From Acidimicrobiales bacterium (GTDB lineage Bacteria; Actinomycetota; Acidimicrobiia; Acidimicrobiales; CATQHL01), in contig CBDBQD010000002.1 of the NCBI GenBank assembly GCA_965209115.1, positions 1,223,890-1,287,889 on the forward strand: 64,000 bases of DNA, written 5' to 3'. Each line of letters starts with the position of its first letter. Positions within the stretch are counted from its first letter, which is position 1. Both the position numbers and the translations under genes were made by a program. The notes below the pieces were generated by a model. That model searched no databases. It was not told the origin of the DNA and worked only from the letters and a program-made list of their open reading frames with translations. This document shows positions 23,511 to 33,190 of the stretch, in pieces.

Positions 23511-23712
23511 TTGGCGGCGTCCGAGGTGTCGGTAAGGCTGTCTCACCCCGTTCGTACGATCGGGTCCCTCGATCGAGGAGCCGAGACGAAGGCCGTGGCA
23601 GAACATTCGGTCATCGAGCAGACTGAGACGACGTGGAATCCAACCACGGGTTGTGCCCGCACGTCGCCGAGCCGCGACCACTGCTACGCGCTCGCTAAGC
23701 GGCTCAAGTCAG
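23511..23712 (+). pseudogene. decayed copy of the leader and first ~45 codons of the DUF5131 (Gp37/Gp68) gene
   Basis: Aligns by eye with 32981-33190. VAEHSVIEQTETTWNPTTGCARTSPSRDHCYALAKRLK corresponds to MADRSGIEWTETTWNPTTGCDRTSPGCDNCYALALAKRLK in the intact gene. The middle Cys is lost, there are 3-nt and 6-nt deletions, and similarity stops at ~23712. Confidence 0.75.
23530..23564 (+). promoter_or_regulatory. conserved 35-nt leader element, copy 1
   Basis: cggtaaggctgtctcaccccgttcgtacgatcggg differs at 2 of 35 positions from 33001-33035. It contains the -10-like hexamer TACGAT. Confidence 0.35.
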
Positions 23713-23818
23713 AGATCCACCTCAGGTACGATCATCGCCGAGGTTCGCGGTGCGCAGTGCGGCGGCACTCACATCCGTCGCCGGTACGCGAGCGCACGTC
23801 GTCGGGAGGAGGCAGCAG

Positions 23819-24772
23819 ATGGCACGTTCAGACCTGCTGTTGAATCTCGTCGAGGCTGAGCGTTCGGGGGACCGGCAGCGGTTCTTGATGGTTGTCGAGT
23901 CGGTAATCGCAGAGGAGCGCCGGAAGCAGCATCATCTCGTTGCGGACCGGCTCGAAGAACTCATCTCGACGGCTGGATCCTCGGCGACCGCCCGGTACCA
24001 GAGCCCACCGGTAGCCCAGGACGGCCTGCTGCTGGAGGTCGTGCCGAGGCGGCGGCTGGCGGACCTGTCGCTGACGTCCGAAACGGCGACAACAGTGTCC
24101 GAGGTCATTGAGGAGCACCGCCGACGTGATGTGCTGAGGGCGCACGGGCTCGAGCCACGGCACCGGCTGATGCTTGTTGGGCCGCCCGGCAACGGCAAGA
24201 CGAGCCTGGCTGAGGCGATCGCCGCGGAACTGATGGTGCCGATGTTGGTGGCCTCGTATGAGGCGCTGATCAGCAGCTACCTCGGTGAGACTGCCAGCCG
24301 ACTCGCTGCGCTGTTCGAGTTCGTTCGATCGCGAGAATGCGTCTTGTTCTTTGATGAGTTCGACACGATTGCAAAGGAGAGGGCGGACGACCACGACACC
24401 GGTGAACTCAAGCGCGTGGTGTCGTCCCTCTTGTTGGGCGTTGATCGGCTACCGAGCCACGTAGTCGTGGTGACAGCGTCGAACCACCCGGAAGTCTTGG
24501 ACCGGGCCGCCGGGCGGCGGTTTCAAGTGCACGCAAACCTGCCGGCGCCGTCGCAGGCCGAGATCCAGCGGTTCGTCGAGCGACAGGAGAAGCGCGGTCA
24601 CGGCTTCGGCGTCAGTTCTGAGACGATCGCGAAGACCATGGTCGGTGCGAGTTACTCCGAGGTCGAAGACCTCCTGCTGGGTATTCGCCGCCGCTATGTG
24701 CTCGGCCTCCCAGATGCCGACCTGAAACGGACGGCACGAGAACGGCTGGATAGGTGGCGGAAGCAGACCTAG
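23819..24772 (+). CDS. ietA: AAA+ ATPase, IetA-like
   Basis: ATG 23819. Walker A GPPGNGKTS, Walker B VLFFDEFD, sensor region VVVTASNHPEVLD. Immediately followed by, and overlapping, an S8 protease gene, which is the IetAS architecture. Confidence 0.6.
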   Translation: MARSDLLLNLVEAERSGDRQRFLMVVESVIAEERRKQHHLVADRLEELISTAGSSATARYQSPPVAQDGLLLEVVPRRRLADLSLTSETATTVSEVIEEHRRRDVLRAHGLEPRHRLMLVGPPGNGKTSLAEAIAAELMVPMLVASYEALISSYLGETASRLAALFEFVRSRECVLFFDEFDTIAKERADDHDTGELKRVVSSLLLGVDRLPSHVVVVTASNHPEVLDRAAGRRFQVHANLPAPSQAEIQRFVERQEKRGHGFGVSSETIAKTMVGASYSEVEDLLLGIRRRYVLGLPDADLKRTARERLDRWRKQT

Positions 24773-31487: not shown

Positions 31488-32941
31488 CCTCCGATCCGAA
31501 GGCGTTGGTGCAGAGGCTGTGGGATTTCTGCGACGTCCTGCGTGATGACGGGTTGTCGTACGGGGAGTACCTGGAGCAGCTCACCTATCTGCTGTTCTTG
31601 AAGATGGCCGACGAGCAGTTCGAGCAGCTCGGCGGGCAGCGGGTGGTGCCGGCGGGGTTCGGCTGGGCGTCGCTGTTGCGGCGCTCGGGCGTCGAGTTGG
31701 AGCAGCACTACAGCACGGTGCTCGAAGAGCTCGGCGCGGGCGAGGACATGCTGGGGGTGGTATTCGGGAAGGCGCGCAATCGGGTGCAGGATCCGGCGAA
31801 GCTGGAGCGGCTCATCAAGGAGTTCGTGGACCGCCACGAGTGGCTGAGCCTGGATGCCGATCTGAAGGGCGACGCCTACGAGGGACTGATCGAAAAGACC
31901 GCGCAGGAGGGCGCCCGCGGGGCGGGCCAGTACTTCACGCCCCGGGCGTTGATCTCGGCCATCGTCGACGTGATGCGGCCGGGCCCCGATGATCGCGTCT
32001 GCGACCCGGCGTGTGGCACCGGCGGCTTCTTCCTCGGCGCCTACCAGTCGATCCTCCAGCGCTTCCCGCACCTGGAGCCGCACCAGACGGCGCACCTGCG
32101 GTCGGGGGCGTTCACGGGTTGGGAGATCGCGGATCTGCCGGCGCGGCTGTGCGCCATGAATCTGCTGCTGCACGGCATCGAGAGCCCCGAGTCAGACTCG
32201 CCGATCCGCGTCGACGACGCGCTGCGGGACTCTCCGAGCGCCCGCTTCGACATGGTGCTCACGAACCCGCCGTTCGGGCGGTCCTCCTCGGATAGCTACG
32301 AGCGGGAGGACTTCTGGGCCGCCACCCGCAACAAGCAACTCAACTTCGTGCAGCACATCGCCGGCCTGCTTCGCATCGACGGCACCGCGGCGGTGGTGGT
32401 GCCCGACAACGTGCTGTTCGAGGCCGGCGCCGGCGAGACGATCCGCCGCCGCCTGCTGGCTGACTGCGAGGTCCACACCCTGCTGCGCCTGCCGACGGGC
32501 ATCTTTTACGCCCAGGGCGTCAAGGCCAACGTCTTGTTCTTCCGCCGCCGCCCCGGCGCCGAGGCGGCCTGGACCCGCGAGCTGTGGGTCTACGACCTGC
32601 GCACCAACAAGCACTTCACCCGCAAGCAGAACCCCCTGCGCCGCGCCGACCTCGACGACTTCGTGACCTGCTACCGCCCCGACGAGTTCCACCGCCGCGA
32701 GGAGTCCGAACGCTTCAAGCGCTTCACCTACGAGGAACTGCTGGCCCGCGACAAGGTCAGCCTCGACATCTTCTGGCTCCGCGACGACAGCCTCACCGAC
32801 ACCGACGACCTCCCACCCCCCGCCGTCCTCGCCGCCGAGATCGCCGAAGACCTCCAAGCCGCCCTAGAAGAAATCCAAACCCTCGCCGACTCCCTGGCAG
32901 CCACCGAAATCGCGTCGGGCGGGGAGCAGACCGGAGACTGA
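31484..32941 (+). CDS. hsdM: type I restriction enzyme M subunit (N6-adenine methyltransferase)
   Basis: 485 aa. N-terminal LWDFCDVLRDDGLSYGEYLEQLTYLLFLKM, motif I DPACGTGGF, catalytic NPPFG. GTGA overlap with hsdS. Confidence 0.9.
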   Translation: MTSDPKALVQRLWDFCDVLRDDGLSYGEYLEQLTYLLFLKMADEQFEQLGGQRVVPAGFGWASLLRRSGVELEQHYSTVLEELGAGEDMLGVVFGKARNRVQDPAKLERLIKEFVDRHEWLSLDADLKGDAYEGLIEKTAQEGARGAGQYFTPRALISAIVDVMRPGPDDRVCDPACGTGGFFLGAYQSILQRFPHLEPHQTAHLRSGAFTGWEIADLPARLCAMNLLLHGIESPESDSPIRVDDALRDSPSARFDMVLTNPPFGRSSSDSYEREDFWAATRNKQLNFVQHIAGLLRIDGTAAVVVPDNVLFEAGAGETIRRRLLADCEVHTLLRLPTGIFYAQGVKANVLFFRRRPGAEAAWTRELWVYDLRTNKHFTRKQNPLRRADLDDFVTCYRPDEFHRREESERFKRFTYEELLARDKVSLDIFWLRDDSLTDTDDLPPPAVLAAEIAEDLQAALEEIQTLADSLAATEIASGGEQTGD

Positions 32942-32980
32942 CAGGACCCCGATTCACGGCGCTGCAACGCGGAGGCCGAC

Positions 32981-33190
32981 TTGGCGGCGCTGGCGGGCAG
33001 CGGTAAGGCTGTCGCACCCCGTTCCTACGATCGGGATCGTGAATAGTCGAGCCGGGAAGAAGGGCATGGCCGACCGTTCGGGCATCGAGTGGACCGAGAC
33101 GACGTGGAACCCGACCACGGGTTGTGACCGCACGTCTCCGGGGTGCGACAACTGCTACGCGCTCGCGCTCGCCAAGCGGCTCAAGGCCAT
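32981..33190 (+). repeat. intact counterpart of the diverged direct repeat at 23511-23712
   Basis: Covers the leader plus the 5' coding region of the DUF5131 gene. By eye it is roughly 70-95% identical to the left copy, depending on the sub-segment. Confidence 0.75.
33001..33035 (+). promoter_or_regulatory. conserved 35-nt leader element, copy 2
   Basis: cggtaaggctgtcgcaccccgttcctacgatcggg. Matches copy 1 at 33 of 35 positions and lies 30-60 nt upstream of the DUF5131 start candidates. Confidence 0.35.

Follow-up and report, generated by a model that had tools for sequence, protein, structure and literature searches.

A truncated DUF5131 gene start that travels with IetAS in an integrase-free defence island of an Acidimicrobiales bacterium

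Background

In target-restoring integrative elements, such as prophages and integrative and conjugative elements, foreign DNA is bracketed by one truncated and one intact, diverged end of the same gene, the displaced copy being that of the host and the restoring copy that of the element. The same layout is present in the DNA analyzed here, a stretch of 64,000 nucleotides from an Acidimicrobiales bacterium (GenBank assembly GCA_965209115.1, contig CBDBQD010000002.1), hereafter called the window; all coordinates are positions in it unless a related locus or contig (labelled Lxxx) is named. A truncated copy (left) and an intact copy (right) of the leader and 5' end of a DUF5131 gene flank the genes of an IetAS defence system and of a type I restriction-modification (R-M) system. 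An earlier note on this DNA proposed that an element carrying a replacement 5' end had integrated into a resident DUF5131 gene. Unlike in target-restoring elements, however, the truncated copy moves here with the cargo, and the locus has neither a recombinase nor a core attachment (att) sequence nor a known empty site. We consider it probable, at roughly 0.7, that the copies are not the two ends of one insertion at this place, and that a travelling block which includes the truncated relic adjoins a DUF5131-TcmP gene pair whose normal position is after hsdM.

Arrays of orphan gene fragments are the other described system with which the locus can be compared. Those of Vibrio cholerae type VI secretion effector-immunity loci, and the orphan 3' ends of Rhs and contact-dependent inhibition (CDI) genes, are attributed to homology-facilitated illegitimate recombination (PMC5361080), a mechanism defined in PMC3240628. 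Here as there, cargo for defence or competition varies next to a conserved gene region, and decaying displaced gene ends lie beside a new module, with lineage-specific breakpoints and no integrase. In the present locus, however, what was orphaned is the 5' end of a gene together with the leader, whereas the arrays keep 3' ends or immunity genes, and the orphan has since joined a relocating block; the anchors in these Acidimicrobiia would be hsdM and DUF5131.

The locus also has the position of a tRNA-adjacent genomic or defence island: it lies directly 3' of a tRNA-Arg gene, has a lower GC content, contains only defence genes and varies in occupancy among relatives. It differs from such islands in that it lacks an integrase, a duplication of the tRNA 3' end and defined ends, and in being a mosaic of modules, each with its own distribution. 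Defence genes can in addition be embedded in type I R-M loci, as is the gene of the PrrC anticodon nuclease within the EcoprrI hsd locus. Extra defence genes stand beside hsd in our loci too, in the hsdS/hsdM and hsdM/DUF5131 gaps of relatives and upstream of hsdR in the window, but the partners are here IetAS and DUF5131-TcmP (candidate system PDC-M41).

The case is a further instance of known island mosaicism. It is also a cautionary one: a truncated and an intact copy around cargo resemble an integration footprint, yet the truncated copy belongs to the cargo. It shows the assembly of a defence island without integrase in poorly studied metagenome-assembled genomes (MAGs) of Acidimicrobiia, many of which bear names of sponge symbionts, where modules (IetAS, type I R-M, DUF5131-TcmP, PD-Lambda-5, SoFic, TIR proteins) appear to be swapped at conserved gene anchors and leave datable relics. 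Two leads emerge from it, a conserved linkage between R-M and DUF5131-TcmP and a possible reuse of the relic's leader.

Results and discussion

A diverged direct repeat

Local alignment of the left copy (23530-23708) with the right copy (33001-33185) gave 149 identical positions out of 179 (83%) and a single 6-nt gap, with a score of 80 against 9.5 +/- 1.0 (maximum 14) for 300 dinucleotide shuffles. A repeat search returned the same pair as the largest direct repeat of the region (166 nt without gaps, 83%, spacing 9471). The repeat also extends, more weakly, to 23511/32981; this extension is real, because its TTGGCGGCG motif is kept in five aligned upstream regions; TTGGCGG is present in 5 of these 5. 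Two 1-nt indels upstream of the leader are the only gaps besides the 6-nt one, and homology stops at CTCAAG (23708/33185). The repeat spans ~65 nt of non-coding leader and ~40 codons of DUF5131, which start with ATG at 33066 in the right copy and with GTG at 23595 in the left copy. The ~200-bp repeat of leader and gene start reported in the earlier note, whose ends lie within 5 nt of those found here, is thus confirmed, as are its significance, the continuation of the right copy into a full-length DUF5131 gene (Pfam, 337.6 bits) and the content of the 9.3 kb between the copies, exactly ietA, ietS, hsdR, hsdS and hsdM (Pfam, PADLOC). The described decay of the left copy holds for a lost Cys codon, the 6-nt deletion and the missing gene body, but a 3-nt deletion said to accompany them was not found.

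In a GC-rich genome, and with a short GCGCTC repeat in the coding part, similarity by chance or low complexity might be suspected. The score is however ~70 standard deviations above the shuffles, the leader core occurs at only these two places in 64 kb where 0 are expected, and the left copy aligns with the DUF5131 starts of dozens of genomes, which leaves this explanation practically without weight. The repeat is real and homologous. The longest run of identical bases between its copies is now 16, so that recombination between them is unlikely.

The left copy

The contexts of the left copy were collected from close homologues of IetA, and in two cases (L104, L105) by a search with the junction sequence itself. 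In the window, homology of the left copy ends after ...AAGCGGCTCAAG, without gene body. The identical breakpoint (...K-R-L-K | S...), followed by the same join to ietA, was found in four lineages and three unrelated chromosomal contexts. L097, a contig of 3.7 Mb, matches the window from 23486 to 30210 without interruption (86%), then along hsdM as far as the stop codon; TerB, BrxC/BrxD and a helicase border the match on the left, HTH-HipA borders it on the right, and no DUF5131 follows hsdM within the 1.8 kb available. L104 and L105 have the same context as L097. The match of L098 starts at 23508 and covers ietAS, in which ietS is broken, and a remnant of hsdR; its neighbours are an HNH gene at one end and GmrSD, a transposase, Fic and SmpB at the other end. 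L094 and L095 represent the tRNA-Arg site orthologous to that of the window in a related species; of the relic they retain only the final ~45 nt, followed by the same ietA spacer as in the window. In IetAS loci that are more distant (L099, L100), the match begins only at the start of ietA. A search with the junction pattern returned only the lineages named above as carrying the relic-ietA join, and the pattern was absent from viral contigs. An identical IetA protein is found on 12 contigs in the same arrangement.

The identical breakpoint and the joins shared by four lineages indicate that the join arose once and is older than these lineages. Since the relic is attached to ietA-ietS-hsdR in other contexts, it is part of the travelling DNA and not of the target. 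The relic has moved with IetAS-hsdR since a join of single origin, and it is not the displaced end of a resident gene. Sequence changes of the relic are distributed among lineages as follows: the 6-nt deletion is common to the two tRNA-Arg lineages only, L094 keeps the TGC Cys codon lost in the window, and L097 and L098 keep the Trp and all three Cys.

These contexts bear directly on the integration proposed at first, in which an element with ietAS-hsdRSM and a replacement DUF5131 5' end would have hit a resident DUF5131 near tRNA-Arg, its integrase acting in trans or being lost. A truncated left copy, an intact right copy, 83% identity and cargo in between fit this scheme formally, and the tRNA-adjacent site is a variable hot spot; but the truncated copy is linked to the cargo elsewhere, in the two other contexts represented by L097/L104/L105 and L098, and the L097 block has no DUF5131 after hsdM. 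Together with the points noted in the following sections, this makes site-specific integration very improbable.

The right copy

A scan for DUF5131 proteins, with one genome per species, gave 79 loci, mostly from Acidimicrobiales/Acidimicrobiia MAGs, many with sponge-associated Candidatus names, and then from Streptomyces; 76 of them had enough upstream sequence. According to tblastn of the window proteins, hsdM lies at most 500 nt upstream of DUF5131, typically at ~100 nt, in 27 of the 76 loci, and farther upstream on the same strand, with other genes intervening, in 13 more. Overall, hsdM is thus found upstream of DUF5131-TcmP on the same strand in 40 of 76 loci. IetAS, PD-Lambda-5 and the housekeeping flanks of the window were detected by tblastn in none of the 79 DUF5131 loci. 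Since hsdM is the usual upstream neighbour of DUF5131-TcmP, the R-M genes are not cargo dropped before the right copy. The idea that R-M formed part of an inserted cargo is therefore not tenable: hsdRSM stands directly upstream of DUF5131-TcmP in dozens of species without IetAS, and this conserved state also speaks against site-specific integration.

The closest relatives share discrete DNA blocks with the window while their flanks are unrelated. These blocks are hsdR from ~27327 (84-85% nucleotide identity to L001, L002 and L004, starting at 27327-27391), hsdM, and the leader with DUF5131; the latter block is sharp-edged (33001-33793, 88-89% nucleotide identity) and the hsdM block behaves likewise. 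At the protein level, DUF5131 is 88-92% identical to its best relatives, and hsdS products are 27-81% identical among relatives. The DUF5131 and TcmP genes overlap by 4 nt. DUF5131 corresponds to PF07505, and a PF07505 gene immediately before a TIGR04474 gene is the signature of PDC-M41, for which defence activity is predicted. The neighbouring systems are recognized in the same manner, IetAS by an AAA+ ATPase adjacent to an S8 protease, and type I R-M by HsdR, HsdS and HsdM encoded together.

We conclude that hsdR-hsdS-hsdM-DUF5131-TcmP is a conserved five-gene supermodule in this bacterial group. The arrangement suggests that type I R-M may be functionally linked to the uncharacterised, radical-SAM-like DUF5131/TcmP pair. 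No description of this linkage, and no functional study of DUF5131 or TcmP, was found in the searchable literature; the linkage is a lead to the function of the pair. A recombination break at codon 45 of the right copy was also considered and rejected. Identity over its first 44 codons is uniform, at 93-95% to all relatives, which denotes conservation and not a chimera, and the lack of a chimeric break is a further point against site-specific integration.

A single crossover of Campbell type deserves attention at this point. A circle made of the DUF5131 5' fragment, ietAS and hsdRSM, formed for example by recombination between DUF5131 repeats flanking them in a donor, would have recombined with a resident DUF5131. 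Such a crossover predicts exactly the structure of the window; the fragment is carried with the cargo in other genomes, the tandem DUF5131 pair of L002 could spawn circles, and the conserved DUF5131 upstream region begins where the shared block has its left edge. The adjacency of hsdM, leader and DUF5131 is, however, ancestral and widespread, and so was not made by closure of a circle, and in L097 the block lacks a DUF5131 after hsdM. The copies in the window no longer share more than 16 consecutive identical bases, too few for the reaction to take place again today, and no circular junction or deletion product was seen. We hold this alternative to be unlikely.

Several side observations concern the same genes. 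The DNA homology of the DUF5131 block ends ~25 nt before the DUF5131 stop codon in the comparisons with L001-L057. TcmP is only ~25-45% identical in amino acids (full-length partners) where DUF5131 is 74-92% identical, i.e. a hypervariable partner stands beside a conserved enzyme. L081 (1-366) is 99% identical to the window from hsdM on and diverges completely upstream of the hsdM start (31485), so that hsdS differs between near-identical strains. After TcmP, the closest relatives carry a RecQ-like helicase with a phosphoribosyltransferase domain, of the PsyrT type (L001 12227-14347; L002 11855-13981, the protein of which scores 883 bits with PADLOC PsyrT; L005 15862-18069; L007 11934-14078), at the place occupied in the window by PD-Lambda-5.

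The tRNA-Arg site

The island measures 14.4 kb (23327-37738) and extends from the tRNA-Arg gene to a transketolase-like gene, with a GC content of 0.61-0.67 compared to ~0.71 in the flank. Its modules are all defence systems: IetAS, type I R-M, DUF5131-TcmP (PADLOC candidate PDC-M41) and PD-Lambda-5 A/B. All genes between 23327 and 37738 were assigned, and the gaps of at most 310 nt leave no room for an integrase. In agreement with the earlier note, Pfam and PADLOC scans of the genes showed no integrase in the segment between the copies, nor anywhere else in the island. The 3' end of the tRNA has no repeat in the window with at most 3 mismatches over 25 nt; within the island, short matches reach 11 nt at most, which is at chance level, and there is no att-like repeat. 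The absence of integrase and of att-like repeat again disfavours site-specific integration. The island contains neither an insertion sequence (IS) nor an IS scar.

Five orthologous tRNA-Arg loci (L092-L096) were located through the flanking acyl-CoA dehydrogenase. Homology between the window and L092-L095 ends at 23326-23353, and L093 and L094 are unrelated to the window beyond 23353. What follows the tRNA differs from locus to locus: no island and a different right flank in L092; two hsdM remnants and a SoFic gene in L093, then the right flank of the window from 37739, the homology of which continues through tkt, YgjP and GlnRS; an IetAS-hsdR block, partly deleted, in L094 and L095; a DUF6339 gene cluster in L096. 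An intact DUF5131 beside the tRNA-Arg was seen in none of these five loci, so the empty site expected from integration into a resident DUF5131 gene at the tRNA-Arg side was not found among them. The tRNA-Arg site is a variable defence slot, and the whole 14.4-kb stretch is an integrase-free defence island.

The organization of the island is as follows, all genes and leader features being on the + strand. The tRNA-Arg(TCT) gene (23253..23326; ARAGORN; Rfam tRNA, 68.8 bits) forms the left border of the variable island. It is followed by a spacer (23327..23485) which is private to this population, with matches only to the same-population contigs L082-L091, and then by the left edge of the travelling block (23486..23529), i.e. 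the distal upstream part of the relic, which contains TTGGCGGCG and is homologous to L097/L104/L105 from 23486 and to L098 from 23508. The leader core of the relic (CGGTAAGGCTGTCTCACCCCGTTCGTACGATCGGG, 23530..23564), identical to the right copy at 33 of 35 positions, is by its conservation a probable promoter/operator. The 5'UTR of the relic and the DUF5131 pseudogene fragment (23565..23708; GTG at 23595, ~38 aligned codons, end ...KRLK|) are 81% identical to the right copy. The spacer upstream of ietA (23709..23818), which begins at the probably illegitimate join, contains a conserved CCTCAGGTACGATC at 23720-23733 and the Shine-Dalgarno sequence GGGAGGAGG; the same junction and spacer are present in L094, L097 and L098.

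The genes that come next are ietA, encoding the AAA+ ATPase (23819..24772; PADLOC IetA 440 bits, Pfam AAA); ietS, encoding the S8 subtilase (24754..27312; PADLOC IetS 844 bits, Pfam Peptidase_S8); hsdR, the type I restriction subunit (27391..30210; Pfam ResIII, Helicase_C and EcoEI_R_C); hsdS, the variable specificity subunit (30207..31487; Pfam Methylase_S, PADLOC Specificity_I); and hsdM, the type I methyltransferase (31484..32941; Pfam N6_Mtase 219 bits, PADLOC MTase_I 604 bits). The upstream region and leader of the intact DUF5131 gene (32981..33065, core 33001-33035) are homologous to L001 and L003-L007 from exactly 33001. They precede the gene of the right copy, PDC-M41B (33066..33818; Pfam profile 2-243/243, PADLOC PDC-M41B 372 bits), and its partner TcmP, PDC-M41A, which is highly variable among relatives (33815..34894; NCBIfam TIGR04474, 170 bits for a cutoff of 53). 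PD-Lambda-5 A and B (35204..37549; PADLOC 259 and 320 bits), of which B is a D12 adenine methyltransferase (36686-37549), are the last module. At the right border (37739..37761) the syntenic housekeeping flank resumes with the transketolase-like gene (GTG at 37761), as does the homology to L093 (37739).

Two further signals around the island were set aside. Contigs L086-L089, which start inside the tRNA, were judged uninformative as a hint of strain variation; metagenome assemblies commonly break at tRNAs. The divergence of L080 at 37956 (L080 6458) was not retained as an island border, as it falls inside the transketolase-like coding sequence. L080 is 99% identical to the window until the middle of this gene and then runs on into an ABC permease, probably as a chimera of the metagenome assembly.

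Gene relics in related loci

Gene ends left beside cargo are not limited to the window. In L025 a DUF5131 fragment (codons ~4-61, without leader, with a frameshift and a TAA stop, 95% identical to the intact copy) sits upstream of a TIR gene and hsdRSM-DUF5131. In L007, a 59-nt relic of the hsdM 5' end (19 codons, TAG stop) precedes 3.2 kb of cargo and then an intact hsdM. L031 and L046 have hsdM 3' relics at the far side of 3.4-kb inserts, L026 and L067 contain 3' and internal DUF5131 fragments, and L002 has two full DUF5131 copies in tandem. IS21, ISL3, IS30-like and other transposases occupy variable slots of related loci. The breakpoints differ among these relics, which argues against a site-specific reaction, and hence also against site-specific integration in the window. 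They fit recombination anchored in conserved genes, with illegitimate joins on the opposite side. The fallback readings of the earlier note, that recombination at a conserved gene exchanged the cassettes and that mobilisation was ancient, are compatible with these data, the former because gene-fragment brackets with differing breakpoints recur in related loci, the latter because the junction between fragment and ietA predates the split of at least four lineages.

The tandem copies of L002, and the 3' and internal fragments of L026 and L067, would also be expected if the window had acquired its structure in situ. Starting from tandem DUF5131 modules, IetAS would have taken the place of TcmP and of the 3' portion of DUF5131 in the upstream module, through deletion or insertion, possibly IS-mediated, and the later contexts would reflect rearrangement of the left flank and not movement of a block. 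The transposases of related slots, and three identical 1.25-kb copies around the module in L033, could have served in this history. The island of the window, however, has no IS or IS scar, and a DUF5131 piece upstream of hsdR was found in 1 of ~14 loci with enough sequence. Moreover, assembly GCA_001752985.1 has an empty tRNA-Arg site (L092) and carries the block elsewhere (L098), which relocation explains more easily. In-situ formation appears improbable.

In the reading that we prefer, that of a travelling relic block adjoining the DUF5131-TcmP pair, a DUF5131 gene was at some time severed behind codon ~40-45 (...KRLK), and its start was fused to the sequence upstream of ietA. Relic, ietA, ietS and hsdR(SM) have since been inherited and relocated as one block, which now lies in at least three unrelated neighbourhoods. 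For the join and for the moves we infer either recombination with a homologous anchor in a conserved gene at one end and illegitimate joining at the other end, as in homology-facilitated illegitimate recombination or a similar process, or deletion between neighbouring modules. Such recombination would repeatedly leave orphaned gene ends beside cargo in these genomes.

Some points weigh against this reading. The mechanism of recombination was not observed; neither a donor-recipient pair nor microhomology at the join could be reconstructed, as relatives without the fragment do not conserve the native region upstream of ietA. The contexts number only three and the lineages four, and several are MAGs for which misassembly is possible (cf. 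L080). The left edges of the block nearly coincide (23486 and 23508), which could mean that an element has a defined end. Finally, the relic protein of L097 is surprisingly well preserved, unlike under neutral decay, and gene conversion or selection may be at work.

Two related loci show additional repeats. In L033, three copies of 1.25 kb, 100% identical and presumably IS, are located in the hsdR/hsdS gap (1896-3143), in the hsdM/DUF5131 gap (7465-8718) and, inverted, after TcmP (12271-13525); this layout resembles a composite transposon and could mobilise parts of the supermodule. L027 contains near-perfect tandem arrays near a degraded hsdM/DUF5131 locus (61-nt period, ~16 copies; 72-nt period, ~6 copies), at 15523-16527 and 1938-2405.

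The relic and its leader

The relic of the window has lost a conserved Trp (TGG to CAG, W to Q), a Cys (TGC to CGC, C to R) and two codons (6 nt), and has six third-position changes from GC to AT (GCC to GCA, GAC to GAA, ACC to ACT, AAC to AAT, CCG to CCA and GCC to GCT). The pattern indicates that the coding part is decaying in the window lineage. Coding constraint, which the excess of differences at third positions might evoke, was rejected, the changes being GC-to-AT at formerly GC-rich third positions as under relaxed selection. The relics of the window and of L097 are 81% identical, to be compared with 82% for the third positions of ietA.

The leader core behaves differently from its surroundings. 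It is identical at 35 of 35 positions in the window population, L097, L104 and L105, versus 63-81% for the adjoining segments, and the lineages with this perfect core are those with intact ietA, ietS and hsdR. In L098, where ietS is broken, the core is reduced to 31/35 (four changes), and in L094, where ietS and hsdR are truncated, it is deleted. The TANNNT hexamer of the core is kept across the intact genes of relatives. A scan of the leader with Rfam gave no match and an E. coli-type promoter scan of both leaders was negative, so that a regulatory role rests on conservation. From this conservation, the 35-nt core of the relic may still act as a promoter/operator reading into ietAS. Against this, ietA has a conserved motif of its own containing TACGAT (23720-23733), and L094 is without leader; a promoter role of the relic is therefore not required.

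A bolder and rather doubtful proposal is that the core has been exapted as a portable promoter/operator that accompanies IetAS(-hsdRSM), and that the 5' regions of DUF5131 and hsdM are integrase-free docking sequences. If this were true, a single regulator would control two or three defence systems of the island through the core, which also precedes DUF5131-TcmP, and the docking sequences would let sponge-associated Acidimicrobiia shuffle defence cassettes between islands.

Minor observations were made on the relic frame and on IetAS. From 23595 to 23843 the relic has an open frame of 82 codons, which crosses the junction and stops 22 nt into ietA; it is open in L097 and L098 too, and with 67% GC this could easily be due to chance. 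In L100-L102, a more distant IetAS pair has two or more additional AAA-ATPase/S8-protease pairs around it, encoded on the opposite strand, which makes this island a cluster of several IetAS-like paralogues. Among the classical hot spots at which islands insert is the tmRNA/smpB region; in L098 and L099, which come from different genomes, IetAS is located within a few kb of smpB, and L099 has a tmRNA gene at 4551-4936.

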